From an uncultured Candidatus Saccharibacteria bacterium (GTDB taxonomy: Bacteria > Patescibacteriota > Minisyncoccia > Phycocordibacterales > UBA9973): a stretch of 53,723 nt of DNA. The position numbers and the translations under genes were made by a program. The notes beneath the pieces are model-generated. The model worked only from the letters and a program-made list of their open reading frames with translations, ran no database searches and had not been told where the DNA came from. Of the stretch, positions 4,968 to 16,794 are shown piece by piece. Position 1 is the first letter of the stretch, and each line of letters begins with the position of its first letter. The DNA lies in contig CAYSMH010000004.1 in assembly GCA_964432275.1 (NCBI GenBank), positions 1 to 53,723 of the forward strand, written 5' to 3'.

Positions 4968-5354
4968 ATGAATACTAAACAAATTCTTTCTTGCGCTATC
5001 GCACTACTTGTAGGACTTGGTATTGGGCTTGCGGTAAGTCATCGAACTACGGATCAGACTTCTCGTGGTATGCACAAAATGCCAGATGGTACTATGATGC
5101 ACGATAGTATGGACATGGCATCTATGATGGCAGATATGAATGCAGCACTTGCTGGCAAATCAGGAGATGAGTTTGACCGAGCATTTCTCACTGAGATGAT
5201 CGTCCACCACGAAGGTGCGGTAGAGATGGCAGAACTTGCACTCACCAATGCAAAGCGTCAAGAAATCAAAGACCTCTCGCAAGCAATCATCTCTGCTCAA
5301 AACACTGAGATAACCCAAATGAAAAACTGGCTTACTAAGTGGTACGCTCGGTAA
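4968..5354 (+). CDS. DUF305 family (four-helix, metal-associated) secreted protein
   Basis: Signal or TM segment, a Met/His/Asp-rich stretch, then FDRAFLTEMIVHHEGAVEMAE...ISAQNTEITQMKNWL, typical of DUF305. Confidence 0.7.
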   Translation: MNTKQILSCAIALLVGLGIGLAVSHRTTDQTSRGMHKMPDGTMMHDSMDMASMMADMNAALAGKSGDEFDRAFLTEMIVHHEGAVEMAELALTNAKRQEIKDLSQAIISAQNTEITQMKNWLTKWYAR

Positions 5355-5370
5355 GTCTATTTTTGATACT

Positions 5371-5619
5371 ATGACAGCTACTATTGCCGGAGGTCTAGTA
5401 CACAGACTACCGAAGGATCTCAGAGATGCACTTGTGGCATCTGTGCCCGCGCTCTCTGTGTGGCAAGACATCACGGTGCTTGCTCGTAATGAATGGATCT
5501 GCTGGGTTATTTCGGTGAAAAAAGAACAAACTAGAGTCGAACATATACGTCGCGCGATAGAGAACCTCGCGCAAGGGAAACGACGACCGTGTTGTTGGGC
5601 CGGGTGTCCACATCGCTGA
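5371..5619 (+). CDS. YdeI/OmpD-associated family-like small protein
   Basis: LPKDLRDAL...WQDITVLARNEWICWV...KKEQTRVEHIRRAIENLAQGKRRPCCWAGCPH resembles the YdeI C-terminal domain. Confidence 0.5.
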   Translation: MTATIAGGLVHRLPKDLRDALVASVPALSVWQDITVLARNEWICWVISVKKEQTRVEHIRRAIENLAQGKRRPCCWAGCPHR

Positions 5620-5676
5620 TACTTGTAATAGGGTCTGTAGTATACTGTCCTGGTTAAAAGCTTAACTGTAACCTAT

Positions 5677-6027
5677 ATGACTACACAAGAAATAGCACAT
5701 CGTTTAGTAGAGCTCTGTCGAGCAAGCAACTTTGAGGGAGCATGGGACGAACTCTTTGCTCCTGGATGGACAACGTACGAGCTCGAGGAATGGGGAGGTG
5801 CAGTTCGTCACGGCAAAGAAGAAGCAAAAGCTGCATCTGATGAATGGCAAGCAGATATTGCAGAAATGCACGAAATGACAATCAGTGACCCTATCGTAGC
5901 TGATGACAGCTTCGCCTGTGTGATGACTATGGATATTACAAGCAAGACTCGAGGCCGTAACAAAGAGTCCGAAATCTGTGTCTACAAAGTCAAAGATGGC
6001 AAAATAGTCATCGAACGGTTTGTTTAA
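5677..6027 (+). CDS. SnoaL/NTF2-like fold protein
   Basis: 116 aa. N-terminal TTQEIAHRLVELCRASNFEGAWDELFAP and a C-terminal KDGKIVIERF beta-strand pattern. Confidence 0.45.
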   Translation: MTTQEIAHRLVELCRASNFEGAWDELFAPGWTTYELEEWGGAVRHGKEEAKAASDEWQADIAEMHEMTISDPIVADDSFACVMTMDITSKTRGRNKESEICVYKVKDGKIVIERFV

Positions 6028-6067
6028 AAAGTAGACTGTATCTTTGAATTACTCACAATAAATAGTT

Positions 6068-6514
6068 ATGGAAAAATTACACATTTCATTTCTGATAGAC
6101 GCACCCCGGGAAAAGGTATGGAGCACAATGCTCAATGAGGATACCTATCGTCAGTGGACAACAGCATTTCATCCAGGTTCATACTACAAAGGCACCTTGG
6201 CGCAAGGAGAGAAAATACTCTTTCTTGGTCCGAGTGAGGATGGAGAAGGTGGGATGGTAAGTCGCGTGGCTGACATTCGACCGTATGAATTTATTTCATT
6301 TGAACATCTCGGGATTGTGAAAAGCGGTGTTGAAGACACCGAGAGTGACGAGGCAAAGAAGTGGTCACCAGCATTTGAAAACTACACATTCAAAGATGTA
6401 GAAGGCGGCACCGAGCTTATTATCGATCAAGACATTGGCCCTGATGAAAAAGAGCAATTTCAAGAAATGTGGCAACGCGCACTCGCACTCTTGAAAGAAC
6501 TCGCTGAGAAATAA
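6068..6514 (+). CDS. SRPBCC / AHSA1-like domain protein
   Basis: The pattern HISFLIDAPREKVWSTMLNEDTYRQWT is typical of the Aha1/SRPBCC family. Confidence 0.62.
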   Translation: MEKLHISFLIDAPREKVWSTMLNEDTYRQWTTAFHPGSYYKGTLAQGEKILFLGPSEDGEGGMVSRVADIRPYEFISFEHLGIVKSGVEDTESDEAKKWSPAFENYTFKDVEGGTELIIDQDIGPDEKEQFQEMWQRALALLKELAEK

Positions 6515-6546
6515 AAGCGATTGGTGGATTTGGATATGCTAGTTTT

Positions 6547-6575
6547 TTGACATACGCTATAAAAAAATGTAGGGT
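6547..6575 (+). promoter_or_regulatory. Sigma70-type promoter
   Basis: TTGACA-N17-TAGGGT located 14 nt upstream of ATG 6589. Confidence 0.5.
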
Positions 6576-6588
6576 AAGAAAAAAACAT

Positions 6589-6918
6589 ATGCAAAACAAT
6601 ATCGAGTTTGTAACCGATAAAAATTGGACAGACTGCTTCAGGCTACAGTTCCCACCGTTGTTTGCCGAATATTCTATACTGCTTCGTAAGTTGAAAACTA
6701 TTAAAGGTATAAAGATTCAACAAAGATACATAGATGTATACCCTCCCTGTTTTTATCTTGAGGAAGGGGTAGTACCACAACAGATGTATACACCAGTAAC
6801 ACAAGCAATTAAAGAATGTTTCGGAGATAAGTACACAGTATCTCAAACTACCATTAGTGCTGAGGGATCGTGGTCTAGGTTTCGTAAAAAAATGAGAAAA
6901 AAAGGTTATGATTTTTAA
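6589..6918 (+). CDS. Hypothetical protein (109 aa)
   Basis: ATG preceded by a promoter-like element; the track start at 6547 is the TTG inside the -35 box. AT-rich, no family recognised. Confidence 0.5.
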   Translation: MQNNIEFVTDKNWTDCFRLQFPPLFAEYSILLRKLKTIKGIKIQQRYIDVYPPCFYLEEGVVPQQMYTPVTQAIKECFGDKYTVSQTTISAEGSWSRFRKKMRKKGYDF

Positions 6919-6934
6919 TATCATAACCTTTTTT
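6901..6934. terminator. Terminator hairpin
   Basis: 12-bp perfect stem AAAGGTTATGAT/ATCATAACCTTT, 7-nt loop, T-run. It overlaps the stop codon at 6916-6918. Confidence 0.7.
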
Positions 6935-6969
6935 AGTGCACTCGAATGTTAGAGGGTGGTTGAAATAAT

Positions 6970-7158
6970 TTAATTGATGAGATCGCTCGTAATCCACCCA
7001 AAGCAAAGATTGTTAGTTTTTAAGCCAATGCATGTATTGCGCAATTGAGCTGTAGGACTTGTTTTGTCATCAATATTACGAAACTCGGTTTCTCTGTATT
7101 GTTTAGGGAACAAGAAGAGTACTATACCAATAATAAGTATTATTTTTACTATTTTCAT
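6970..7158 (-). CDS. Small secreted/membrane peptide (62 aa, 2 Cys)
   Basis: N-terminal hydrophobic segment MKIVKIILIIGIVLFLF. Confidence 0.4.
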   Translation of the reverse strand: MKIVKIILIIGIVLFLFPKQYRETEFRNIDDKTSPTAQLRNTCIGLKTNNLCFGWITSDLIN

Positions 7159-7181
7159 ATATGGTATTTTATATCAAAAAA

Positions 7182-7209
7182 TTGTTTTAAAGAAGAAAAC
7201 ATTCGGAAT
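7182..7209 (+). repeat. Possible heavily decayed copy of the island motif
   Basis: TCAAAAAATTGTTTTAAAGAAGAAAACATTCGGAAT compared with TCAAAAAATGCTCCGAACATTAGAGGATGTTCGGAAT at 13450-13483. The right arm is conserved; the left arm is AT-degraded. Confidence 0.25.
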
Positions 7210-7255
7210 ATAATAAAGGCCTAACAAACTTGTTAAGCCTTATTTAAATTTAGAA

Positions 7256-7642
7256 TCAGCCACCACTCTCAGGGGTTAGTGCTTCATTAAAACGTTCAGC
7301 CATCAATATACCTTCTTCATTTTTAATGAAGAAAAAAACATTCTCATCAATATCTAACCAGCCAACAATACACCTCCGGTTGTTTCCATTGGATATATCT
7401 TGAAGACCGTGATACTCCCCGGAACCATCATAGTTATCATACTGTATCCAGGCTTCGATTTTTTGAACGTACCCAGAAAGCTTCTGTTGATTAATTATTA
7501 AAAGAAAATCAGTTCCACATATAGATTGCTCAACTAATGGCATAGAATTTTTATGATTTGCTATGTATGCAATTGATTTTGGAATTACACCGCACTCATA
7601 GTCCGTATTTCCCATGGAGTCAAAATTGGCAATTTTGAGCAA
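7256..7642 (-). CDS. Hypothetical protein; the frame stays open upstream to 7747 (see frameshift finding)
   Basis: 128-aa track ORF starting at TTG. A further 35 in-frame codons lie upstream without a start, and a nearby ATG (7746) is out of frame across an A7 run. Confidence 0.5.
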   Translation of the reverse strand: MLKIANFDSMGNTDYECGVIPKSIAYIANHKNSMPLVEQSICGTDFLLIINQQKLSGYVQKIEAWIQYDNYDGSGEYHGLQDISNGNNRRCIVGWLDIDENVFFFIKNEEGILMAERFNEALTPESGG

Positions 7643-7786
7643 TTCAGATATTACTTCTTTTGGGTATCCTTTGAATACTGCTATTCCACTAAAAGGACCA
7701 CTACAACCCGGTGGAGGTAGTAATCGCTGAAGTTTATTTTTTTCATGTTACTTGTTTTTAAGTTTTCTTCACCTTACAACTTAGGC

Positions 7787-7814
7787 TTGACTTTGTCAAA
7801 TAATGGAGTAGAGT
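7787..7814 (+). promoter_or_regulatory. Sigma70-type promoter
   Basis: TTGACT-N16-TAGAGT followed by GTAAACAA. The same module occurs at 10468-10495. Confidence 0.55.
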
Positions 7815-7836
7815 AGGGTAAACAAAAATCTTAACA

Positions 7837-8430
7837 ATGAAAAAAAACATCGCTACGAAAATCGAGTTTCTTCACAAGGATTATGTACCTGAAGGTGTGT
7901 ACTGTATTGATCCCATCGCTCGTAAAAATAGAGTGGAATGTTTAAAGCAATACCATATTGAAAAAAATGTTTTACATAAAATTTTACCACTTATAACAGA
8001 TGAGCCAACTGAAGAAGAAATAATCCGCCAGGATGAAGTTCAGTGTGGTACGAGCTTTTGGGCACATCGTGCTGACCCTTCCAAAGGGGAATACGTGTCT
8101 TCTGTTGGGTATAGTAGTAATACAAAAAGCGATAAGGAAATAATGGAACAGCTCGCTATTTCTACAGTTACCCCCAATGTAGTTGCCGAAAGAATTTTGC
8201 AGATACTTGAACATCAACCAGATGGCATGCAAGGTATCATTAGTAATAAAAATGTAACTATTGTCGGGTATGTGGAAATAGAGGAACATGAAGAAAGAGT
8301 CATATACCCAGTGGTGATAGGGTATATGCCGCAATACAAAAAATGGGGCATAGATGCTCAGATAGGTGTTCCGTGGTGTAATGGCTTACGTATCATTAGC
8401 AAGAACCAGTCCGCCGTTGTTACTGGTTAG
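7837..8430 (+). CDS. Hypothetical protein (197 aa)
   Basis: Long AT-rich ORF with its own promoter; no family recognised. Confidence 0.6.
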   Translation: MKKNIATKIEFLHKDYVPEGVYCIDPIARKNRVECLKQYHIEKNVLHKILPLITDEPTEEEIIRQDEVQCGTSFWAHRADPSKGEYVSSVGYSSNTKSDKEIMEQLAISTVTPNVVAERILQILEHQPDGMQGIISNKNVTIVGYVEIEEHEERVIYPVVIGYMPQYKKWGIDAQIGVPWCNGLRIISKNQSAVVTG

Positions 8431-8496
8431 CTTAATTTCATTTTATTTTTTTTAAACCATTTTATTCGATAAGATAAAATGGTTTTTTATTTTTTT

Positions 8497-8524
8497 ATTC
8501 CGAACATTAAAGGATGTTCGGAAT
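8497..8524 (+). repeat. Island att-like motif, perfect palindromic copy
   Basis: ATTCCGAACAT-TAAAGG-ATGTTCGGAAT, with 11-bp perfect arms. Confidence 0.9.
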
Positions 8525-8542
8525 GCAATTAGCTTGATTCAC

Positions 8543-8559
8543 TAGGGAGGATGTTCGAA
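8543..8559 (+). repeat. Island motif, right half-site only
   Basis: TAGGGAGGATGTTCGAA. Confidence 0.6.
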
Positions 8560-8612
8560 ATTGTTTCAAATAAAAAAACCGCACATAGGCGGCTTTTTTG
8601 TACGTTGAGTGC

Positions 8613-8903
8613 TTATAACTTTTCCAGGCTTTTTACCATTTGGTTGGAATAGGACATCAATGATAAGAATACAAGGAATATACCCAGAAGAATTCCTAAC
8701 ACTATTAATGGAGCCCATTTTGATCCATTAGGCTGACTTTCCGGTGAATTAGCCAAAGACATTAGTACTGAAATTCCAGAAATAAAAGTGCACCATGCAA
8801 AAGACTTGCGTCGATTTTTCCAGAGGGAAATCCGTTTTTCTATGGACTGCCTCATTTCCTTAGAAATGGGTACAGTCGAATCTGTTGTAGTTGATCCGCT
8901 CAT
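8613..8903 (-). CDS. Small two-TM membrane protein (96 aa)
   Basis: Two hydrophobic helices (WCTFISGISVLMSL and APLIVLGILLGIFLVFLSLM). Confidence 0.5.
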   Translation of the reverse strand: MSGSTTTDSTVPISKEMRQSIEKRISLWKNRRKSFAWCTFISGISVLMSLANSPESQPNGSKWAPLIVLGILLGIFLVFLSLMSYSNQMVKSLEKL

Positions 8904-8983
8904 ATGTTAAGTTTTCAAATACATTACAACCCAAACTTGACTTTGTCAATGAAAAAATATAATGTGTTTGGAAATTTATACCA

Positions 8984-9220
8984 ATGGCAAATATTAAAAT
9001 TAAAGACATTGTGCTCAAAGCTGGTGCTGATATCAAAAAAGGTAAAAAGTATCGCATTCTTGAGAAACATGTCCAAAACAGTACTGTAACTTCATTTCTT
9101 GTTGAACAGGTTCAGCCGGGTCTTCAAACAATAGAAAATAGAGGGGAGAAGAGTTTTATAAGTTCAAATAATACTGAACTGTTGCTGATAGAACAGGAAG
9201 AAGATTTGTACTTTGTGTAA
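8984..9220 (+). CDS. Hypothetical protein (78 aa)
   Basis: ORF downstream of TTGACT (8937-8942) and TATAAT (8958-8963). Confidence 0.45.
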   Translation: MANIKIKDIVLKAGADIKKGKKYRILEKHVQNSTVTSFLVEQVQPGLQTIENRGEKSFISSNNTELLLIEQEEDLYFV

Positions 9221-9299
9221 TTTAATACGCTTAACAAAAGAATCCACATTGATGGATTCTTTTTACATAGTTTGGCTAATACATTATTTCGTACCAAAT

Positions 9300-9342
9300 C
9301 TTCACAACATTCATGTGCTTCAAACGATAAAGAATGTTCGAG
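9300..9342 (+). repeat. Island motif, degenerate copy with upstream flank
   Basis: CTTCACAACATTCATGTGCTTCAAACGATAAAGAATGTTCGAG. The first 11 nt are identical to 16391-16401, next to tRNA-Asn. Confidence 0.6.
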
Positions 9343-9370
9343 ATATAGTGGTGAATGATATAATTATTTT

Positions 9371-9970
9371 ATGATAGTTTCAGATAGAGAACGGCAAGCT
9401 CCGACAACAGTATCAGAAGCCGAACCATCTCATTTAGCGCGCTATGAGTTTGCCCGTCAGTTCCTTAAGGGTACCGATGAAGTGTTGGATGTTCCATGTG
9501 GAAGTGGGTACGGGTCATGTCTGATGTCCAAGGTAGCAAAAAAGGTCATTGGTATTGATATTCATGCAGGAGCGATTGAACATGCAAAAGAATGTTTCCA
9601 AGAACATAATATTGAATTTGCGGTTGGCAATATGGAGACGTTAGATTCCTTGACTGTGCCATTTGATGTCGTTGTCAGTTTTGAGGGTATTGAACACATA
9701 CATAATCAAGACGCATTTTTAGAAAGTATTGCAAGACTATTGAAACCCAACGGATATTTTATAATCTCAACTCCTCGAAAACCTCACGGCAGCCCATACC
9801 ACACAATCGAATTTAATCTAGATGAATTTAAAACTATCCTGTCTGAAAAGTTTGTTATAGAGAAAATGTACGGCCAAATTTACACTGACATATTTGATAT
9901 GACTGAAAGAGAAGAAGATCCTCACGCGTACCATCGTTTCAATTTTATTGCTGTTTGTAGACTTAAATAG
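9371..9970 (+). CDS. Class I SAM-dependent methyltransferase
   Basis: Motif I VLDVPCGSGYGS and a post-I acidic residue, plus LKPNGYFIISTP. Confidence 0.8.
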   Translation: MIVSDRERQAPTTVSEAEPSHLARYEFARQFLKGTDEVLDVPCGSGYGSCLMSKVAKKVIGIDIHAGAIEHAKECFQEHNIEFAVGNMETLDSLTVPFDVVVSFEGIEHIHNQDAFLESIARLLKPNGYFIISTPRKPHGSPYHTIEFNLDEFKTILSEKFVIEKMYGQIYTDIFDMTEREEDPHAYHRFNFIAVCRLK

Positions 9971-10014
9971 ACAATTTGAACCTTAAAACATATTCGAAAT
10001 GATATACTTACTCT

Positions 10015-10413
10015 ATGAAAAAGATAAGTTCAGATATTGAATCCTATAACAGAGCACTCTCAAAAGAAGATAAAGAGATAGGAACTCTGCTTGCTACTGA
10101 AATTACACAAACTATCCCTCATGCAGAGAATAAAATTTGGCATGGACATCCAGTGTGGTTTTTAGAAGGCAATCCAATTGTTGGGTACAGTAAACTTAAA
10201 GATTCAATTCAGGTCTTGTTTTGGAGTGGTCAATCTTTCGATGAACCTTTATTAGAAAATGAAGGTAAGTATAAAGCAGCTCAAATTCGATATACTTCAA
10301 CTGATCAAATTAATACTAAGGATTTGAAGCGTTTACTAACGAAAGCCGTAGAAATACAATGGGATTACAAAAATATTGTAAAAAGGAAAGGTGAACTTGT
10401 GAGACTTTCCTAG
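10015..10413 (+). CDS. DUF1801 (YdhG-like) domain protein
   Basis: 132 aa. The pattern KIWHGHPVWFLEGNPIVGYSKLKDSIQVLFWSG matches my memory of the DUF1801 family. Confidence 0.55.
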   Translation: MKKISSDIESYNRALSKEDKEIGTLLATEITQTIPHAENKIWHGHPVWFLEGNPIVGYSKLKDSIQVLFWSGQSFDEPLLENEGKYKAAQIRYTSTDQINTKDLKRLLTKAVEIQWDYKNIVKRKGELVRLS

Positions 10414-10435
10414 TACAAGGGGAATTGGTTTTATT

Positions 10436-10462
10436 TGCTCAAAATATTAGAGGATGTTCGAA
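10436..10462 (+). repeat. Island motif, left arm degenerate
   Basis: TGCTCAAAATATTAGAGGATGTTCGAA. Confidence 0.75.
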
Positions 10463-10467
10463 AGAGT

Positions 10468-10495
10468 TTGACTTTATCTATGTGTAGGATAGAGT
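10468..10495 (+). promoter_or_regulatory. Sigma70-type promoter
   Basis: TTGACT-N16-TAGAGT followed by GTAAACAA, then ATG 10511. Confidence 0.55.
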
Positions 10496-10510
10496 GATGT
10501 AAACAATAGT

Positions 10511-10705
10511 ATGGAAACAATTTTTGAACAACCGCCGACAAAAGCAGGCAGAGTACTTAAAAAGAGAATAGAGGAAGCAGGGATTGATGTAACTGTTACG
10601 TATGTAGAAGCAGATCAAGATCCTAAGCTTTTGATAAGTGATGATCTATATCCCTATACAGGGTATGAAAAGATCGAATCTTATTTAACAAAAATTACTG
10701 CCTAA
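10511..10705 (+). CDS. Hypothetical small protein (64 aa)
   Basis: ORF bracketed by a promoter and a hairpin terminator (AGCCG..CGGCT plus T-run at 10711-10735). Confidence 0.45.
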   Translation: METIFEQPPTKAGRVLKKRIEEAGIDVTVTYVEADQDPKLLISDDLYPYTGYEKIESYLTKITA

Positions 10706-10734
10706 TTTGAAGCCGTCTTAACTGGCGGCTTTTT

Positions 10735-10761
10735 TGCTCCGAACGTTAGAGAATGTTCGAA
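10735..10761 (+). repeat. Island motif
   Basis: TGCTCCGAACGTTAGAGAATGTTCGAA. The T-run of the preceding terminator runs into it. Confidence 0.85.
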
Positions 10762-10826
10762 CTTACTTGCAGTTATAATCTGGCACAATACTGTCACACT
10801 CTTTCATAGTGACGGTTTTTTATTTC

Positions 10827-10912
10827 AGGTTCGAACTTCTACTAAGGTAGGAAAAATAATCCTTACAAAATAACACTCAAAAAATTGCTCCAGTCGTTGG
10901 ATATGTTTAGAA
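10827..10912 (+). repeat. Island motif, long (about 85 nt) form
   Basis: AGGTTCGAAC..CTTACAAAATAAC..TTGCTCCAGTCGTTGGATATGTTTAGAA. It aligns with 12802-12887 and 13398-13483. Confidence 0.8.
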
Positions 10913-10992
10913 CCGTGAATTGGGCAGAGGTGAAGAGGGAATTGGAGTATTTCTCAAACTTTCTAGAGGGTGCTCGTAAGGCGTTACAATAA
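10885..10992 (+). pseudogene. Remnant of a recombinase-type gene 3' tail
   Basis: Reads LLQSLDMFRTVNWAEVKRELEYFSNFLEGARKALQ*, which is homologous to the remnant at 14251-14367. No upstream ORF. Confidence 0.55.
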
Positions 10993-11032
10993 AAAAAAGA
11001 ATACAACGTTTGTTGTATTCTTTAAAATTTTT
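10991..11032. terminator. Bidirectional terminator
   Basis: 9-bp stem GAATACAAC/GTTGTATTC extended by A/T pairs, flanked by an A-run and a T-run. Confidence 0.7.
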
Positions 11033-11036
11033 TCTG

Positions 11037-11744
11037 TTAGTAGAGCTTAACTCCTCCTTCAGGGGTGGGGAAATTAATTCCACCAATAAATGCCCAAACT
11101 GGCGCATTACTCATAATCATTCCATTTTCAGTGCCGCGAAATTGGTGGTCGCAGTTCGGAACTACTGTAAGTTGCGCCGAAGTTTTTTTGACGAGATTGG
11201 CAAAGATTTTACCCGCTTCTACCCCAACAACCTCATCATTTGCGCCGATTACAATAAACACTTCGCCCGAAAATTCGGAAAGGCCCTTTTCAACTGATTC
11301 TTGCCCAGCATCCCCAGATGGTGCCATAAGAAGAATCTTTTTAACTTCGGGATATTCATGGCAAACCGCTGCAATCGCAGAAGCTCCTGCGGAGAAACCC
11401 ATAAGATAAATTTGCGGATTTTCTGATTTACAGATTTCAGAAGCGTGCTCAATGGCATATTCTATGACTGCTCGTACATCGTCCTGAACTGATTCAGTGT
11501 AGTCGAGCTCATCATTATATTGGTTTCCCATTTGAATCACGGCTCCAACTTTTTCCTGCAGCGATTTTGCAAGGGTGAGGTATTTGTTGTTGTACCCATT
11601 GATGTCGCCGTTAAAGCCTGGATAGTTGAGGATAATAATTTCTTTTTCCTGGTTTACATGGATAGTGATGGGTATCTCAACATTGATTTTGTTGCCCGTG
11701 ACTGTTGCAGCCTTTCTTTTTACGGTAGTGATGTGTGTTGGCAT
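11037..11744 (-). CDS. Alpha/beta hydrolase fold protein
   Basis: Nucleophile elbow LMGFSAGAS (G-x-S-x-G) and C-terminal ND/H residues (GANDEVV, CDHQF). Confidence 0.72.
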   Translation of the reverse strand: MPTHITTVKRKAATVTGNKINVEIPITIHVNQEKEIIILNYPGFNGDINGYNNKYLTLAKSLQEKVGAVIQMGNQYNDELDYTESVQDDVRAVIEYAIEHASEICKSENPQIYLMGFSAGASAIAAVCHEYPEVKKILLMAPSGDAGQESVEKGLSEFSGEVFIVIGANDEVVGVEAGKIFANLVKKTSAQLTVVPNCDHQFRGTENGMIMSNAPVWAFIGGINFPTPEGGVKLY

Positions 11745-11846
11745 TGTTTGTTTTTTAAAGTTTTACAATTTTATATATAATACAACTATATATATAATAT
11801 GTCAAATAATCCGAGTTTAGAATTATTTTAGATTTTCTTTAACTAG

Positions 11847-12218
11847 GTGTACGGTTTTGGTATGGAACCAAAGAAGCCTTGGTACAAGGAAATGATGGAA
11901 ATTACCGATATTGCAGAAAAAATCAACGATGTTATGACAAACGGCACTTTTCAGTCGAAAAGACTCATACTTTCGCAGCTTGGTTCGAACCTAGTATGGA
12001 ATGATGAAAAACTTAGTATTTATAGCAAAAAATCGATAACCATTCTTGTTGAAGGTATAAAACGTATTAGATCTGAATTTCCAAAGTTCGAACCTAAAAC
12101 TTACGCTGGTATACAAAGCTTAAATGAAAAAAACGAGCCTCTCGACCCGATTTTTTCAGCACTGCTCCGAACGGTAGAGGGTGTTCGAACTTGTTTAGCG
12201 CTGAAAGAGGGGGTTTAA
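11847..12218 (+). pseudogene. 5'-truncated recombinase-like gene (C-terminal fragment; probably large serine recombinase family)
   Basis: ..SKRLILSQLGSNLVWNDEKLSIYSKK..PKFEPKTY..SALLRTVEGVRTCLALKEGV. The tail contains the island motif. No catalytic N-terminal part is present. The family assignment is from memory only. Confidence 0.4.
12084..12189 (+). repeat. Island motif, coding master-like copy inside the gene fragment
   Basis: AAGTTCGAACC...TGCTCCGAACGGTAGAGGGTGTTCGAA. GTTCGAAC octamers lie at 11983, 12086 and 12183. Confidence 0.75.
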
Positions 12219-12243
12219 GCCTTATAAATAAAGGGTTTTAATA

Positions 12244-12272
12244 TTGACATTTTTATATAAATATGTTAATAT
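12244..12272 (+). promoter_or_regulatory. Sigma70-type promoter
   Basis: TTGACA-N17-TAATAT. Confidence 0.6.
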
Positions 12273-12356
12273 AAACCTATAAGTTCCTTGAAGGGTTTTA
12301 GTGGTTTCCAAAGGTCCCAGAGTATAGGATTTGTGGTAACCACTAAAATCAGTTAA

Positions 12357-12752
12357 ATGAAATATTCAACACAATTCCCAAAAGGTGGCACCAATAAAAT
12401 GTCGGAGCCAATGCACATTACCGCAGAATTGAAATCTATAAAAAATCTTACCATTCAGGGAAGGACATACACCCGTGACGGCTACCAACTCAGATTATTG
12501 GACAAAGACGGACAGGAGATCGGTAAGTATAATTATATACGCGGGATGATGGAAGGACCACTATCTCCGAGTAAACCCGCAAAAGATGTTGTGGAGGATA
12601 TCAATTTATTACTGGAGCTTGCAGGAAAGAAAACAAGAATCTTGCCTGAACAATTCGTTCCTGTGATGAAAGAAGTAATCAGTAAATGTGAATCACGATA
12701 CGGTAACCCAATTCCTGATTCTGATTATGAAGTGTTGGTGATGTTTCAGTAA
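12357..12752 (+). CDS. Hypothetical protein (131 aa)
   Basis: ORF with a promoter, a structured leader and a downstream terminator. The start is uncertain; alternative Met codons lie at codons 15 and 19. Confidence 0.55.
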   Translation: MKYSTQFPKGGTNKMSEPMHITAELKSIKNLTIQGRTYTRDGYQLRLLDKDGQEIGKYNYIRGMMEGPLSPSKPAKDVVEDINLLLELAGKKTRILPEQFVPVMKEVISKCESRYGNPIPDSDYEVLVMFQ

Positions 12753-12763
12753 TGTTTTTTCTT

Positions 12764-12801
12764 TGAGCTCGGCGAACTACTCGTCGAGCTCATTTTCTTT
12801 T
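12764..12801 (+). terminator. Terminator hairpin
   Basis: TGAGCTCG..CGAGCTCA stem (8 bp plus inner pairs) followed by TTTTCTTTT. Confidence 0.65.
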
Positions 12802-12887
12802 AGGTTCGAACTCCAACAAAGGTCTCCCAGATAACCCTTACAAAATAAGCTTCAAAATTTTGCTCCGAACGTTAGAGGATGTTCGAA
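12802..12887 (+). repeat. Island motif, long form
   Basis: AGGTTCGAACTCC..CCCTTACAAAATAAGCTTCAAAATTTTGCTCCGAACGTTAGAGGATGTTCGAA. Confidence 0.88.
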
Positions 12888-12894
12888 AAAATAT

Positions 12895-13383
12895 CTAACT
12901 AACGTACCCCCAACTATTACCTTGGTCTAGCTTTTCTTCAGGTTTTGATTCTTTTTTGAGTTGCTCGCCTTCATCTTCTGACACACCGACTACTTTAACA
13001 GTCTCAACTAATTCTGGAGGTAGTCTAAACTCCGAACCCTCTGCGACTGCTCCTGTTTGTAGATATTTTTCTAAATCTGCATCAGGAATATCTACATATG
13101 AAAGTACACCACCATAACTTCCTAAAAATGGGAGAGCTATTCCTTCTAAAGAATTCGTATATGAGGGGTTTTTGCCGACTTCACCTTTTCTATTACCTCG
13201 CCAAAGTCTCATGAAGCCTTCTTTGACAGGAGGAAGACTAGATCGTATTTCATTAGCTTTTTTGATAAGTTCACGGATTCGAGGGCTGTCTATATATTCA
13301 TGCCCATGACTTATCAGTTTTCCTGTTTCAGGGTTTATTTCAAATTCATTAGAATCGGTAGCTGTACCCGGTTGTTTTTCCAT
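12895..13383 (-). CDS. Hypothetical protein (162 aa)
   Basis: Clean ORF occupying one module; no family recognised. Confidence 0.55.
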   Translation of the reverse strand: MEKQPGTATDSNEFEINPETGKLISHGHEYIDSPRIRELIKKANEIRSSLPPVKEGFMRLWRGNRKGEVGKNPSYTNSLEGIALPFLGSYGGVLSYVDIPDADLEKYLQTGAVAEGSEFRLPPELVETVKVVGVSEDEGEQLKKESKPEEKLDQGNSWGYVS

Positions 13384-13397
13384 ATTTTTATTATATC

Positions 13398-13483
13398 AGG
13401 TTCGAATTTCTGATAAGGTATCAAAAATGACTATTGCAAAATAAGCTTCAAAAAATGCTCCGAACATTAGAGGATGTTCGGAA
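13398..13483 (+). repeat. Island motif, long form
   Basis: AGGTTCGAATTTC..ATTGCAAAATAAGCTTCAAAAAATGCTCCGAACATTAGAGGATGTTCGGAA. Confidence 0.88.
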
Positions 13484-13545
13484 TTTGACGTACTCCGAAA
13501 AAGGAGTAAGGTAGGAGAAATTAACTAAACTTTAAAATTTGCAAC

Positions 13546-13725
13546 ATGGTAAACGTAAACGAAGAACTTCCGAAAAAACCTGAAGAGTTGGATCCAACAG
13601 AGCTCGTTCAGCTATACACAGATTGTGTCCAACATATAGCAAAAAATGGAGAAGGTGGTTATGTTGGTACTAATAGAACCTTATTAGCTTCCGAGCTAAT
13701 AGATAGGTTAGAAAATAAAAAATGA
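13546..13725 (+). CDS. Hypothetical small protein (59 aa; below the track cutoff)
   Basis: ATG..TGA reads MVNVNEELPKKPEELDPTELVQLYTDCVQHIAKNGEGGYVGTNRTLLASELIDRLENKK. A terminator follows. Confidence 0.4.
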   Translation: MVNVNEELPKKPEELDPTELVQLYTDCVQHIAKNGEGGYVGTNRTLLASELIDRLENKK

Positions 13726-13745
13726 AATTAACATTGGTTGTATTT

Positions 13746-13780
13746 AAGTCCTTGAATTTGATATTTAAGGACTTTTCTTT
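13746..13780 (+). terminator. Terminator hairpin
   Basis: AAGTCCTT..AAGGACTT stem with a T-rich tail that runs into the next motif copy. Confidence 0.6.
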
Positions 13781-13807
13781 TGCTCCGAACCTTGGACGAT
13801 GTTCGAA
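13781..13807 (+). repeat. Island motif
   Basis: TGCTCCGAACCTTGGACGATGTTCGAA. Confidence 0.8.
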
Positions 13808-13852
13808 TAGAAATAGGGAAGTAAGCGCAAAGTATTGAAAGATGTTGATATA

Positions 13853-13880
13853 TTGACAAAAAATGTATATATAGTATGAT
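13853..13880 (+). promoter_or_regulatory. Sigma70-type promoter
   Basis: TTGACA-N16-TATGAT. Confidence 0.6.
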
Positions 13881-13917
13881 TATTAAAAATATTTTATAAC
13901 TCAAAAATAAAAGAATT

Positions 13918-13953
13918 ATGAGAAGTATGAGAAGTATGAGAAGTATGAGAAAT
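13918..13953 (+). repeat. 9-bp tandem repeat at a start codon
   Basis: ATGAGAAGT x3 plus ATGAGAAAT, giving four in-frame ATGs (MRSMRSMRSMRN). Confidence 0.9.
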
Positions 13954-14199
13954 ATAAAGTTTTTCAGTGAACTCCACTCAAATATGTTTTTTTGGTTCCT
14001 TATTATGGGAACAGTTGGAATATCGGTTCTCACGACACCGATCTGGTTGTTTAATAGGATTGAAATGAAAGGTATTTCATACAAAGTACTATTTTTCATT
14101 ATCCTTGTACTAGTGCTATGCATTATTGCCTACATAATATGGGCAACTATAATTTTCATTTTAATGAAGATCTTCCATAGAACTGAAACATCTAAGTAG
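13918..14199 (+). CDS. Small membrane protein (93 aa, 2-3 TM) with MRS repeats at the N-terminus
   Basis: Hydrophobic helices FFWFLIMGTVGISVL and VLFFIILVLVLCIIAYIIWATIIFILM, with a promoter and a terminator present. Confidence 0.5.
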   Translation: MRSMRSMRSMRNIKFFSELHSNMFFWFLIMGTVGISVLTTPIWLFNRIEMKGISYKVLFFIILVLVLCIIAYIIWATIIFILMKIFHRTETSK

Positions 14200-14212
14200 C
14201 TCGAATAGAGCA

Positions 14213-14242
14213 AGTCCTGACGAAAACGTTAGGGCTTTTTTT
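14213..14242 (+). terminator. Terminator hairpin
   Basis: AGTCCTGACG-AAAA-CGTTAGGGCT (10 bp including 2 G-U pairs) plus T7. Confidence 0.65.
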
Positions 14243-14250
14243 ATTGCTTA

Positions 14251-14367
14251 AAGTGGCTCCCTCTAATGGACAAGTTCAGAACTCTCAATTGGGTTCAAAT
14301 TAAACGAGATATTGAGTTTTCCAAGATTTTTGAGATATATTCAGAGATGGTACTTCAGAACTTGTAA
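14251..14367 (+). pseudogene. Remnant of a recombinase-type gene 3' tail (motif equivalent at 14254-14282)
   Basis: Reads KWLPLMDKFRTLNWVQIKRDIEFSKIFEIYSEMVLQNL*, which is homologous to 10885-10992. Confidence 0.55.
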
Positions 14368-14370
14368 TAG

Positions 14371-14421
14371 AAAAAACCCACTGAATAGTAGATTTTTTCT
14401 ACAATTTTCGGTGGGTTTGTT
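14371..14421. terminator. Bidirectional terminator
   Basis: 12-bp stem AAACCCACTGAA/TTCGGTGGGTTT with an inner hairpin, flanked by an A-run and a T-run. Confidence 0.7.
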
Positions 14422-15069
14422 TTAGTCTTTTCCTCCTAATGCTTTGTATTTCGCATGAGCAGTAGTACTAATTTTACCACTATTATCAAGCCAAATCCTT
14501 TCAGCTTCTGAAGCGTTGGTAATACGTGCAATCTTATCCAGCATCAGTTTTTCATATCTTGCGTAAGCTATGTCACTAACTTTGCCACTGTTGTCTAACC
14601 AGATGCGCTCTACTTCTTCTGGTTTACTGATTTTTGCAATTTTGATTGACATCAGGCTTTCGTATTTTACATAGCCAGCATCACTGATTTTTCCATAGTT
14701 GTCTAACCAGATGCGTTCTGCTTCATTGGGGTCAGTGATGGAATTGATTTTAGTTAGCATCAGGCCTTCGTATTTCACATAGGCTACATCGCTAACTTTT
14801 CCATCATTATCTAACCAAATACGCTCGAGCTCTTTAATGCTAGTAGAGTATTTAATTTTATCTAACAGTTGAAGCTCTTCTTCAGGAGATAATACTTTAC
14901 GGGTAATTTTAATCTCTGAAGATTTTGCCGTACCTGTTTTAGCTGTTGCCACTGCTTCTATTTTTGCTTCCACCTTATTTTTTTCGGGACAGTCGCAATT
15001 TGATGAGCAGGATGTAAGAATGAAACTCATGCAAATTATTGCAAGAAAAAGATAGATAATTCTTTTCAT
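14422..15069 (-). CDS. Lipoprotein with 3.7 tandem 36-aa repeats
   Basis: Signal peptide plus lipobox (FILTSC). Repeat unit is ERIWLDNxGK[VI]SDxxYxKYExLMxxKIxxIxxxxE. Confidence 0.7.
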   Translation of the reverse strand: MKRIIYLFLAIICMSFILTSCSSNCDCPEKNKVEAKIEAVATAKTGTAKSSEIKITRKVLSPEEELQLLDKIKYSTSIKELERIWLDNDGKVSDVAYVKYEGLMLTKINSITDPNEAERIWLDNYGKISDAGYVKYESLMSIKIAKISKPEEVERIWLDNSGKVSDIAYARYEKLMLDKIARITNASEAERIWLDNSGKISTTAHAKYKALGGKD

Positions 15070-15187
15070 TGTTGGTTTATTTAATTGTTTGAGATTATTG
15101 AGTTGTCCCTAGTCCCAAAAGGAGTAGGGAAAACCCAACAAAATCAACAATAAATAACCAAATATCTCAAAGGACTACTATAAGTTC

Positions 15188-15216
15188 ATCATAGCATAAA
15201 ATAGTATAAAAGTCAA
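15188..15216 (-). promoter_or_regulatory. Sigma70-type promoter for the lipoprotein gene
   Basis: On the minus strand: TTGACT-N17-TATGAT. Confidence 0.55.
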
Positions 15217-15222
15217 GTATCT

Positions 15223-15249
15223 TGCTCCGAACCTTAGAGGATGTTCGAA
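15223..15249 (+). repeat. Island motif
   Basis: TGCTCCGAACCTTAGAGGATGTTCGAA. Confidence 0.88.
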
Positions 15250-15275
15250 AAGCTTTAATCTGCTAGAATCAGTCT

Positions 15276-15902
15276 ATGAAAGACAGTGCCAAGACAATCC
15301 TTTGTTACGGAGACTCAAACACCTGGGGTGCTGTGCCAAACTCTGACGATAGATACCCTCGCAGTGTACGATGGCCTGGAGCTCTCCAAGGGCTTTTAGG
15401 AGAGGAATACGAGGTAATCAGTGAAGGTCTCAACGGCAGAACGATGGTTGTTGTCGACCCTGTAAAACCATATCGCACAGGTATTACTCATCTCCAATCT
15501 ATACTCCAAAGTGCAGACCCTATAGATACTGTTATTGTTATGCTTGGAACCAATGATATTAAGAATACATACAATCTCTCACCAAAACAGATTGCAGAAC
15601 ATCTAGAGCAAACTATCTCAATGATTATAGAAAATGATGTGATTGAGTCAGTACAGCAAATTATCATTGTTTGTCCGCCATCAATCATTCATCCTGAAGT
15701 TGGAAATCTAGATGAGCGGGTAGTGCGGGGTATAGAGCTATTTAATGTGCTTCCAAGTTTGTATAAAGAAGTTGCAGAAAAACATGGATGCGAGTTTCTA
15801 AATGCGGGGGACTGTATTTCTTCGAGTAAAAAAGACGGGTATCATCTGGATGCAGATAGTCACATTGCATTGGCAAACGCAATCAAAGGGTTAATTATTT
15901 AA
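15276..15902 (+). CDS. SGNH/GDSL-family hydrolase (esterase/lipase-like)
   Basis: Block I ILCYGDSNTWG, block II GLNGRT, block III MLGTNDI, block V DGYHLD. Confidence 0.85.
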   Translation: MKDSAKTILCYGDSNTWGAVPNSDDRYPRSVRWPGALQGLLGEEYEVISEGLNGRTMVVVDPVKPYRTGITHLQSILQSADPIDTVIVMLGTNDIKNTYNLSPKQIAEHLEQTISMIIENDVIESVQQIIIVCPPSIIHPEVGNLDERVVRGIELFNVLPSLYKEVAEKHGCEFLNAGDCISSSKKDGYHLDADSHIALANAIKGLII

Positions 15903-15904
15903 AT

Positions 15905-16378
15905 ATGCAATTCTATACCCGCAAAGATATTCTCGAAATTGTAAAACCAGACCCATCGTGGATGAATTTCGACGTTCCTGTGACGTATGAGAAAAAGACT
16001 ATTCCTTTGAAAGAGGTAATTGAGACTTTGTATAGTGTTTGGGATGATATTGAAGATTTCGAACGAGTATCCTTTATGGAATACGCAAAGGCTTTTAAAG
16101 ATAATGTAATTTCAGATATACCACAAGAACGAAAACAAAAAATATTTGAAATCTATAATAATAAATTCATTGATACAGAACTTATGGTTCCATGTTTCAT
16201 CTGCAAAGATTTGAAAATCTTGTTACCTGAGGAATATCCTCAAAACATGAAAACTCCTCACAGTGTATATATTGCAGAAGATAGAAACCATCGTCTTGTT
16301 GCACTTGCCTTACGAATTCTTGATGGAGAAAATTTAGAAGAAATACCCGTTACTGTTTTCTTTGGACATATTGCTTAG
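15905..16378 (+). CDS. Hypothetical protein (157 aa)
   Basis: Tightly follows the SGNH gene. AEDRNHRLVALAL faintly recalls the ParB/Srx D-x-x-HR motif, but that is unverified. Confidence 0.5.
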   Translation: MQFYTRKDILEIVKPDPSWMNFDVPVTYEKKTIPLKEVIETLYSVWDDIEDFERVSFMEYAKAFKDNVISDIPQERKQKIFEIYNNKFIDTELMVPCFICKDLKILLPEEYPQNMKTPHSVYIAEDRNHRLVALALRILDGENLEEIPVTVFFGHIA

Positions 16379-16381
16379 CTT

Positions 16382-16437
16382 TCTCCAGACCTTCACAACA
16401 TGCACAACGTTCACTTGCTCCCCCGGTAGGATTCGAA
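16382..16437 (+). repeat. Diverged copy of the island repeat, spanning the tRNA-Asn 3' flank and 3' end
   Basis: TCTCCAGACCTTCACAACATGCACAACGTTCACTTGCTCCCCCGGTAGGATTCGAA compared with the long copy at 12823-12887. Both share the TCTCC.AGA, CTT.ACAA.AT, TTGCTCC and GGAT.TTCGAA blocks. Confidence 0.45.
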
Positions 16438-16489
16438 CCTACGACCAATCGCTTAACAGGCGACTGCGCTACCGCTGCGCCACAGGGGA
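16418..16489 (-). tRNA. tRNA-Asn (GTT)
   Basis: Cloverleaf with acceptor TCCCCTG/CGGGGGA, anticodon loop CTGTTAA and T-arm GTAGG-TTCGAAT-CCTAC. CCA is not encoded. Confidence 0.9.
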
Positions 16490-16557
16490 ATCTGTGGTCC
16501 CTCTAAGATAGAGGAATGTGGCAAGACTATACCATTTTTATCTTTTAGCTTCAACAG

Positions 16558-16794
16558 CTACAGTCTAAAATCACTTTCGTACACCGGCCGACCGTATGGT
16601 GTGGGGTTGTTCCAGAAGTCAAAGCGGAACCAGCCGTAGCCCTGTTCGGGGTAGGAGTAGTAGTCGGGTGCTTGGGCAGCCATCCAAGTGCCTGGCGGGA
16701 GTGCTGTGGGTGCGATGAATTCTCCCCGGATCAAGTGAGGATAGAGTACCCATACGATGAGGAGTGCGCCAATAGTTGCCAATACTTTGCCCAT
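16558..16794 (-). CDS. Small membrane protein (78 aa)
   Basis: N-terminal TM helix (VLATIGALLIVWVLY) and an aromatic/Pro-rich tail. Divergent from pyk. Confidence 0.35.
   Translation of the reverse strand: MGKVLATIGALLIVWVLYPHLIRGEFIAPTALPPGTWMAAQAPDYYSYPEQGYGWFRFDFWNNPTPYGRPVYESDFRL

Follow-up and report, generated by a model that had tools for sequence, protein, structure and literature searches.

What kind of element leaves a 27-nt motif (TGCTCCGAACNTTAGAGGATGTTCGAA) strung along one low-GC island, always on the same strand, and in one place as the final codons of an open reading frame (ORF)? The locus lies in a 53,723-nt contig of an uncultured Candidatus Saccharibacteria bacterium (CAYSMH010000004.1), hereafter the window. 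Seven copies with three or fewer mismatches were found, all on the plus strand, against none in 100 shuffled sequences. A weight-matrix scan of the whole 53.7 kb returned nine sites, again all on the plus strand and all within 8496-15249; the sole minus-strand match (6.6 bits) is a chance hit. The heptamer GTTCGAA occurs 12 times in the window, each time between 8553 and 15243. The island has a GC content of 0.33-0.38, against 0.43-0.50 outside; it starts at ~6.5 kb (a drop from 0.43-0.47 to 0.33-0.38 at ~6500) and ends at a tRNA-Asn(GTT) gene. A first-pass annotation had read the motif as the 3' tail of a recombinase-like gene, seen in successive stages of decay from a gene fragment to a 27-nt scar. 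Comparison with related genomes leads us to conclude instead that the motif combines the crossover core of an attachment site with its element-side right arm (P'), that it is not a decayed gene tail, and that the island (~6.9-16.4 kb) is a stack of ~eleven small gene cassettes. The motifs would be the cassette joints, and the stack was probably assembled by large serine recombinases (LSRs) of one clade, found in Patescibacteria-type genomes, through insertion at the 3' end of tRNA-Asn(GTT).

The recombinase family and its junction with tRNA-Asn

The ORF at 11847-12218 (plus strand, 123 aa) ends ..IFSALLRTVEGVRTCLALKEGV, and the motif sits in its frame at 12163-12189, where it encodes LLRTVEGVR(T), just as the first-pass annotation had described. 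Pfam and NCBIfam held no match for the ORF product. A protein search recovered homologs (P0002-P0004) at 61-66% identity in Patescibacteria metagenome data, and the homolog set P0002-P0012 led to full-length relatives of 565-615 aa that carry PF00239 (Resolvase), PF07508 (Recombinase) and a YxRxSS..Q motif. The family is therefore a clade of LSRs, which bears out the earlier, tentative assignment of the ORF to the C-terminal end of such an enzyme. The longer homologs carry a Cys4 zinc ribbon (CxC..CPxC in P0005, P0011 and the proteins of loci L009, L018 and L010), and in L003 one of them lies directly 3' of a Resolvase-domain ORF. A scan of species-representative genomes gave 18 loci, in bins assigned to Saccharibacteria, Nomurabacteria, Yonathbacteria, Paceibacterota and Parcubacteria, and a profile search of the family gave 808 clusters (50% identity) at E <= 1e-3.

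Judged by alignment, the window ORF is the C-terminal ~105 residues of an LSR: tblastn matched it to the ends of full-length LSRs at 48-61% identity (E-values 1e-23 to 1e-36), with homology over 11880-12194 corresponding to their residues ~484-588. Pfam found no resolvase-type catalytic domain with a serine nucleophile in the ORF and tblastn covered only residues ~484-588; PF07508, the zinc ribbon and the coiled-coil parts were likewise absent in both searches. Since the catalytic region is missing, the window copy is a dead fragment of a family member. When three full-length LSRs were used as tblastn queries, they matched only 11880-12194 and two tail remnants, so the earlier view of a fragment without a catalytic part, in a window without an intact recombinase, stands. 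The island ORFs had no match among integrase families, tyrosine recombinases included, and the gene linked in ~20 related loci was an LSR every time. A viral origin of the recombinase was considered and rejected, as IMG/VR viral contigs held no relative of it. Separately, we noted distant LSRs (24-30% identity to the main clade) at L066 2057-3622, L059 10920-12251 and L094 26-445; since these, too, finish in the motif or adjoin tRNA-Asn, diverged recombinase lineages have site and target in common.

The LSR gene meets tRNA-Asn(GTT) head-on in ~13 related genomes. The ORF ends in the convergent tRNA gene in L001/L002, L004/L020, L006-L009, L011, L012, L015 and L021; the same junction is present in L014, where the contig ends before the tRNA is complete, and in L003, where the contig is also cut and the ORF, lacking the TAG, reads on to ..PRQDSNLRPID. 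The tRNA-fused proteins end in a conserved ..FS(T)(M/L)L plus two residues (R-G/E), and their stop is the TAG of the tRNA T stem. On the plus strand the junction reads ..TTTTTTCTACnA TGCTCC and continues into the acceptor and T arm. Each genome has its own acceptor 3' strand (TCCGCGA, TCCCCCG, TCCTCCG, TCCTTGG and others), which pairs with the 5' strand of that genome, so that element sequence must give way to host sequence within GCTCC or immediately past it. An attP-like form, in which tail and core are followed by the motif (..FSTML RTWDDVRT..), was found in L018/L105, L022, L114 and the window. Because tail and core occur joined both to tRNA and to the motif, the last codons of the gene span the recombination joint. 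The first-pass annotation had allowed that the motif region might be ordinary conserved coding sequence away from any insertion junction; in the full-length homologs its position is an insertion junction, at which tRNA-Asn replaces the motif. Of the 40 family proteins in which the tail was anchored, 20 are short and tRNA-fused, ~10 read through the tRNA (..QDSNLRP..), ~8 are of the motif type (type 1) and 2 have a type-2 tail (..PLVDxFRTLNW..).

The core, (T)GCTCC, is the 3' end of tRNA-Asn read on the opposite strand. Only (T)TGCTCC (a 6-7 nt core) is common to motif and tRNA; the remainder is element-derived P' (GAACnTGGGAGGATGTTCGAA), and the left arm would be the gene's own tail (..FSxxL). 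Joints of a foreign left arm, core and P' lie 7.5-10 kb upstream in L003, L011 and L012. From GCTCC to TCGAAC the distance is 16 nt in P' and 11 nt in tRNA-Asn (right arms only). In the A118-family "LI" integrase of a Listeria phage, the distal motif read by the zinc-ribbon domain occupies half-site positions 16-24 in attP but 11-19 in attB (PMC3783163). The 5-bp shift of TCGAAC fits this rule, and by analogy TTCGAA may be the contact of the zinc-ribbon domain. Counting back from the shifted motif puts the site centre at ~CTCC, in agreement with the junction comparison, which brackets the switch point to (T)GCTCC; the crossover would then fall within CTCC. A crossover at the dyad centre of the motif was ruled out, since integrated copies have the host-specific acceptor 3' strand that pairs with the host 5' strand. 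Two recognisable half-sites forming an imperfect dyad were not found: information content in the left arms stays below 0.35 bit per position over 207 unique sites, and the LSR tail arm is no mirror of P'. "Hybrid" sites (TGCTCCGAACCTTAGAGGA+TGCTCCCG..) in L080, L085 and L050 were tried as a crossover clue and discarded. Those at L080 2797-2880 and L085 4636-4720 are type-1 motifs split between GGATG and TCGAAC by a ~52-nt hairpin-rich insertion (CTCCCGTTTTCTTAGACCTAAGGTCTGCTGAAAACGCAGTCCCTTTAGGGG), which may be a tiny mobile insertion; the motif at L050 3584 is broken at the same point, with a different sequence after it.

The octamer GTTCGAAC, reported three times in the fragment, is indeed present at 11983, 12086 and 12183. 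Two DNA-invariant GTTCGAACCTA elements lie inside the ORF at the first two of these positions (LGSN and FEP, respectively), within GGTTCGAACCTA (LGSNL, 11983-11994) and GTTCGAACCTAA (FEPK, 12086-12097). In 17 of 17 distinct LSR genes (L001-L021), the LGSNL codons are GGT-TCG-AAC-CTA and the FEPK codons TTC-GAA-CCT-AAx, without a single synonymous change, and the spacing of the two elements is exactly 108 nt. In the same genes only 8% of Ser codons are TCG, and 32% of Asn codons are AAC. This lack of synonymous change points to a constraint at the DNA level. The 10-mer common to both elements (TTCGAACCTA) equals the T loop plus T stem of tRNA-Asn. The GTTCGAACCTA elements in the 3' end of the gene are perhaps accessory binding sites.

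The coding signature of P' suggests that it encodes an alternative C-terminal tail, either RTWDDVRT.. or a 37-residue type-2 tail. Variability of the type-1 motif by codon position is 0.14, 0.15 and 0.34, computed on copies that were not chosen by the search pattern; the fourfold-degenerate Thr and the D/E wobble positions are the most variable. The type-2 arm (~115 nt; 14254-14367 and 10888-10992 in the window) encodes (L/W)LPLVD(K/E)FRTLNWxxIKxx(L/I)EFSxI.E...LQN and a stop, with pairwise differences of 0.36, 0.26 and 0.49 by codon position, and its frame stays open even where the upstream frame has stops. As third-position variation is seen without an adjoining LSR gene, P' appears to be selected as the alternative C-terminus of the recombinase. 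Such selection would be expected if any P' of an array can come to join an LSR gene, by adjacent insertion or by excision.

Co-oriented joints in related arrays and in the window

An exact-pattern scan of metagenome contigs gave 101 stretches. With the weight matrix, 223 sites were counted in ~120 loci, all 223 of them co-oriented, with no locus holding both orientations. Arrays reach seven sites (L053, L103), and the spacing between sites has a median of 830 bp (interquartile range 600-1430). In 11/11 loci with both a site and tRNA-Asn, the tRNA gene stands at the right-hand end, on the strand opposite to the sites, just as it does in the window. Conservation over the 207 unique sites is low in the left flank, rises abruptly at motif positions 1-2 and stays high over 2-27; beside the motif there is a conserved T at +34 in an A/T-rich right flank. 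Left arms fall into four classes: T-run terminator hairpins, the -35 box of a leftward promoter, LSR tails, and a module that we call X. An intact LSR tail stands to the left of only 5 of the 223 sites. The same left-arm classes, X module included, are joined directly to the tRNA in L050, L056, L024, L088, L102, L075 and the window, in arrays without a recombinase gene. About 8 of 100 motif-bearing contigs, which are short, hold any LSR; intact LSR genes adjoin the arrays of L016 and L017.

Cassettes shared between loci have their breakpoints at the core. Those common to L061/L066/L069, L072/L103 and L033/L077 are ~80% identical, and homology starts exactly at the core: identity is ~33% over 110 nt to its left and 78-84% over 120 nt to its right. 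L043 and L091 share a 93%-identical cassette whose left arm is identical up to ..TTTGCTCC, after which L043 continues with a type-2 P' and L091 with a type-1 P'.

The window shows the same arrangement. Its island abuts the 3' end of tRNA-Asn, with co-oriented attachment-site repeats and integrase remnants, and contains the following features:

6937..6965 (+), probable decayed site TGCACTCGAATGTTAGAGGGTGGTTGAAA, found by eye near the left edge of the island, with a 1-nt indel relative to the motif and less than 5 bits
8496..8522 (+), degenerate type-1 site TATTCCGAACATTAAAGGATGTTCGGA, 24.6 bits; its distal half is partly repeated (GGAGGATGTTCGAAA) at ~8546-8560
9316..9342 (+), weak decayed type-1 site, 16.4 bits, in repeat family D1
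10436..10462 (+), type-1 site, partly decayed on the core-proximal side, 3 mismatches, 33.9 bits
10735..10761 (+), type-1 site, 1 mismatch, 43.9 bits, directly past the terminator of ORF 10511-10705
10827..10887 (+), X module of ~60 nt starting AGGTTCGAAC, in repeat family D2, with homologs in L112, L061, L049, L110, L066, L024 and L064
10888..10992 (+), degenerate type-2 site and tail exon; the LSR frame reads LLQSLDMFRTVNWAEVKRELEYFSNFLEGARKALQ and a stop (tblastn match 10852-10968)
11847..12218 (+), 5'-truncated LSR gene
12163..12189 (+), type-1 site, attP-like, with the LSR tail to its left and P' to its right (mismatch search and weight matrix)
12802..12860 (+), X module, repeat family D2, past the terminator at 12764-12792
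12861..12887 (+), type-1 site, exact consensus, 0 mismatches, 47.0 bits
13398..13455 (+), X module, repeat family D2, by alignment
13456..13482 (+), type-1 site, 1 mismatch, 43.3 bits
13781..13807 (+), type-1 site, past the terminator at 13746-13774; ~100 nt of its right flank are common to L067 and L112
14254..14367 (+), type-2 site and tail exon; the LSR frame reads WLPLMDKFRTLNWVQIKRDIEFSKIFEIYSEMVLQNL and a stop; past the terminator at 14212-14237
15223..15249 (+), type-1 site, exact, with the -35 box of the minus-strand promoter 15216..15188 as left arm
15250-16417, tRNA-proximal cassette
16418..16489 (-), tRNA-Asn(GTT), the array anchor; its 3' end on the plus strand is TTGCTCC followed by CCCGGTAGGATTCGAAC, the host-side arm (B')

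The X modules correspond to three ~85-nt copies (10827-10912, 12802-12887 and 13398-13483), each starting AGGTTCGAA, that the first-pass annotation had aligned with the gene tail and taken as an intermediate stage of decay. They are real and tail-related: X and LSR tail interiors align with a global score of 7.58, against 5.85 +/- 0.24 for shuffles (z = 7.2). Only two of them end in the 27-nt motif, since the copy at 10827-10912 has no such end and runs into the degenerate type-2 arm at 10888-10992. The layout is AGGTTCGAAC, ~49 nt, then core. Across the arrays, GTTCGAA precedes the site by 55-59 nt in 31 of 208 cases and by 70-79 nt where the left arm is a true LSR tail; other distances are almost never seen. 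The X interior measures 48-51 nt, ~19 nt shorter than the 68 nt of the LSR tail, and contains a conserved hairpin. X modules recur across many unrelated metagenomes, can join the tRNA directly and keep one GTTCGAAC element. Their fixed length and recurrence mean that they are not a stage of erosion in situ; from these comparisons, the X module is best described as a separate unit derived from the LSR tail and propagated as the right end of cassettes. We also considered whether it is a degenerate tRNA-Asn, given the shared TTCGAAC..CTAC and a similar length from T loop to 5' end, and rejected this: at E <= 10, Rfam gave no tRNA-like match in 6500-16600 other than the real tRNA, and no match of any kind to the X module.

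Proposed mechanism and competing explanations

The following steps would account for the arrays. The attP would span the last codons of the recombinase gene, with the gene tail as left arm, (T)GCTCC as core and P' as right arm. A circular unit, closed as right end-core-P', would insert at the tRNA and produce a far joint (previous left flank, core, P') and a near joint (right end, core, tRNA); the recombinase gene would then run into the tRNA and stop at the TAG in its T stem. If the enzyme tolerates any left arm, the near joint could be used again, and co-oriented joints with a variable left arm and a conserved P' would pile up. The 27-nt copies would be those joints, each P' being part of the next cassette. 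In the window, the LSR gene would have inserted in this manner, been buried by six later cassettes that now lie on its tRNA side, become joined to the following P' and been shortened by its 5' 80%. The window array would be mobile only with an LSR supplied from elsewhere.

Several points weigh against this mechanism. No recombination was observed, and the whole case is comparative. The left arm is essentially unconserved, as opposed to the two half-sites of classical LSR sites, so that recognition would have to be very asymmetric or subject to unseen requirements. Textbook LSRs require a full pair of half-sites and will not join attP to a product site such as attR, which makes renewed insertion at the junction of a cassette end and tRNA an assumption. 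Site quality climbs towards tRNA-Asn in the window but not in L085, L016 or L017, hence growth from the tRNA side is a suggestion and its direction is not established; the gradient was accordingly left unused as a sign of such growth. The window stretch 5243-16446 recurs at 100% identity in three independent Logan assemblies from one study (SRR12762275, SRR12762274 and SRR12762323; L124-L126), which gives no hint of ongoing activity in this population. Lastly, the mechanism does not account for the two extra invariant GTTCGAACCTA elements inside the gene. We also noted that two contig ends in L124-L126 fall at window positions 10830 and 16444-16446, i.e. at TTCGAAC elements; these could be assembly breaks at a repeat or a sign of alternative joints.

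How do other explanations of the motif fare? The decay series proposed at first, in which each motif is the remnant of a separate recombinase gene eroded in place and the array a graveyard of complete elements, draws on real features: one true gene fragment is present, the X modules are related to the gene tail, the distal sites of the window are degraded, and some left arms end ..TCCTAYCT, resembling the ..TCTACnA of the tail. However, erosion would need to have halted exactly at the core more than 200 times, with a left flank that is unconserved right up to position 1 and is often the terminator or -35 box of a neighbouring gene; the X modules keep a fixed 48-51 nt across unrelated metagenomes, and remnant lengths to the left of sites are bimodal (55-59 nt or none) and not graded. 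Moreover, the motif lies to the right of the crossover and thus belongs to the next unit, not to the left-hand gene. We consider the decay series improbable: the 27-nt copies, taken as its last stage, are better read as core plus P' of the next cassette, and the 85-nt form as a module that can be joined directly to the tRNA. A regulatory or structural element (a promoter, a terminator hairpin or a repeat of the repetitive extragenic palindromic type), with a merely coincidental occurrence in the ORF tail, would suit an intergenic motif that forms the inverted repeat TCCGAAC-N10-GTTCGRA in the window and was predicted to be terminator-like at 13483-13458 of the minus strand, and the T at +34 and the A/T-rich right flank could be promoter parts. 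Yet the motif keeps one orientation whatever the direction of the neighbouring gene, is limited to one island abutting tRNA-Asn, is in frame with the LSR tail with third-position variation, and is replaced by tRNA in integrated copies; the inverted repeat, for its part, is not kept, as variants with CCGCGT, CCGCAC or CCGAGC retain an unchanged GTTCGAA. Such an element is very unlikely here. For the same reason we dropped a folded site of the attC kind, the inverted repeat of the window not being kept in relatives and showing no compensatory changes. Least credible of all is an origin of the repeats as partial tRNA copies of the classical kind, produced by a tyrosine integrase with tRNA-Asn as its target. 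The island does abut the tRNA 3' end, and the repeats open with the last 6-7 nt of the tRNA and loosely resemble its acceptor and T arm; but only (T)TGCTCC is common to both, TTCGAA is displaced by 5 nt, the island has no tyrosine integrase, and the gene linked to related loci is always the LSR.

A more serious alternative is an active platform analogous to an integron, on which a resident or visiting LSR moves recombinase-less cassettes, or runs of them, via their P' sites, with the window array serviced in trans. Cassettes found in differing contexts with breakpoints at the core, P' copies near consensus and in frame without an adjoining LSR gene, conserved X modules as cassette right ends with a retained GTTCGAAC element, and the L016 and L017 arrays beside intact LSR genes are all consistent with it. 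Against this, no circular cassette junctions were seen, an LSR occurs in only ~8 of 100 motif-bearing contigs (short as these are), the window array is invariant in three assemblies, and the changes of context could come from gain or loss of neighbouring cassettes instead. We regard an active platform as possible but somewhat short of an even bet. More doubtful is the fuller proposal that the arrays are a working serine-recombinase system for cassette capture, a functional parallel to integrons that is mechanistically unrelated to them. There, the P' of every cassette would be an interchangeable last exon of the recombinase, whose tail (RG beside the tRNA, ~15 residues for type 1 or 37 residues for type 2) would report the recombination state and might help set directionality, and the GTTCGAACCTA elements would be accessory binding sites. 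The cassette stack built by serial insertion at tRNA-Asn(GTT) is the reading that we judge probable.

Parallels with known systems and cassette contents

The enzymes resemble the large serine integrases of phages (Listeria A118/LI, phiC31, Bxb1) in their Resolvase and Recombinase domains, Cys4 zinc ribbon and coiled-coil-like stretch, in short double-stranded sites next to the integrase gene with one crossover core, and in a distal motif, TTCGAA, that is displaced outwards by 5 bp in the element site relative to the host site (right arms). They differ in that the target is the 3' end of a tRNA, that attP lies in the last codons of the recombinase, whose C-terminus changes with the recombination state, and that left arms are barely conserved, arrays are dense and co-oriented, and two GTTCGAACCTA elements stand 108 nt apart. 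Like integrons, the arrays consist mostly of single-gene cassettes of ~0.3-1.5 kb, each bounded by sites and co-oriented, with very diverse genes, mostly of unknown function, and with cassettes shared across contexts. Integrons, however, use the tyrosine recombinase IntI, whereas a serine recombinase is found here; their attC sites are folded single strands in which structure is kept, whereas here sequence is conserved and the inverted repeat is often broken without compensation. Furthermore, the cassettes described here have their own promoters and terminators and genes in both orientations, and in place of attI with its Pc promoter the platform is a tRNA gene, with the recombinase gene inside the array at the insertion point.

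Growth at a tRNA gene has precedents. Among the tycheposons of Prochlorococcus, tyrosine recombinases are encoded by 910 of 937 elements and LSRs by the remainder; incoming elements push older ones inwards, leaving fragmented integrases and partial tRNAs (10.1101/2020.12.28.424599). The arrays described here share with tycheposons, and with accretion among streptococcal integrative and conjugative elements, integrative and mobilizable elements and cis-mobilizable elements, tRNA integration that would here too push older elements inwards, fragmented integrases, repeated attachment-site scars, integrase-less units flanked by such sites, and defence genes among the cargo. Those systems rely mainly on tyrosine recombinases and have partial-tRNA repeats and kilobase units with replication modules; here, by contrast, the repeat is the element arm P', which doubles as coding sequence, and units mostly hold a single gene. 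The SSV-type integrases of archaea are tyrosine recombinases whose attP lies inside the int gene, and their integration splits the gene into two inactive parts. The attachment site is here likewise within the integrase coding sequence and integration alters the gene, but the exchange is confined to the last 10-40 codons and leaves the catalytic protein whole. The closest concept is a tRNA-anchored island built by serial integration, with an array anatomy like that of an integron. In a limited search of the literature on serine recombinases, cassettes and genomic islands in Patescibacteria (the candidate phyla radiation, CPR), we found no paper on this system. Its unusual features are an attP in the last codons of the recombinase, P' as a swappable tail exon, one-sided conservation of the site and the density of single-gene cassettes.

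Patescibacteria have tiny genomes with few recognised mobile elements, and the source of gene variation between their strains is poorly understood. The window locus and its ~120 relatives point to one hot spot, the 3' end of tRNA-Asn, at which an LSR clade appears to stack small self-expressed genes and, in larger units, defence genes. For the biology of recombinases, integration and excision would rewrite the C-terminus of the enzyme, and recognition appears to be almost entirely one-armed. If these recombinases are active and tolerant of arbitrary left arms, they would be useful tools, as a naturally available means of adding DNA step by step from one side at a single site.

The cassettes of the window encode small unknown proteins, an S-adenosylmethionine-dependent methyltransferase, a DUF1801 protein, an alpha/beta hydrolase and a GDSL lipase. 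Every cassette comes with promoter-like and terminator-like signals of its own, and genes lie in both orientations. When 18 window ORFs were compared with the other loci, relatives were found for only three (o7837, o9371 and o14422). PADLOC gave one match, the methyltransferase at 9371-9970 as mad2 (3.7e-26). The LSR-carrying units of 7.5-10 kb in L003, L011 and L012 hold defence-like cargo, such as a 1661-aa NACHT/STAND NTPase (L012 1284-6266, minus strand) and a 658-aa AAA_15/AAA_21 ATPase (L011 5375-7348, minus strand).

Some cassettes also share upstream sequences. A conserved promoter with a ~150-nt leader (15070-15222, minus strand) abuts a type-1 site and precedes unrelated minus-strand cassette genes, with copies at L003 642-834, L043 8029-8199, L017 298-449, L061 8-147 and L119 9523-9706. 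RNAalifold on six copies predicted a 19-bp hairpin with compensatory changes in 5 pairs, and the sequence may be a shared cis-regulatory leader. A palindrome, CTTGACTTTGTCAA, occurs in the promoter-like region ahead of two cassette genes (7787-7800 and 8935-8950), and ~90 nt around its first copy (7730-7843) are kept in L112 (twice), L080, L024, L100, L055, L037 and L052. ORF 13918-14199, a small membrane protein, starts with ~3.5 tandem copies of the 9-nt unit ATGAGAAGT (13919-13954; MRSMRSMRSMR..), a start that could be prone to slippage. Finally, the lipoprotein-like cassette protein at 14422-15069 (minus strand) contains about four internal repeats of the form ..ERIWLDNxGK(V/I)SDxAYxKYExLM.. 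and has a partial relative in L050.

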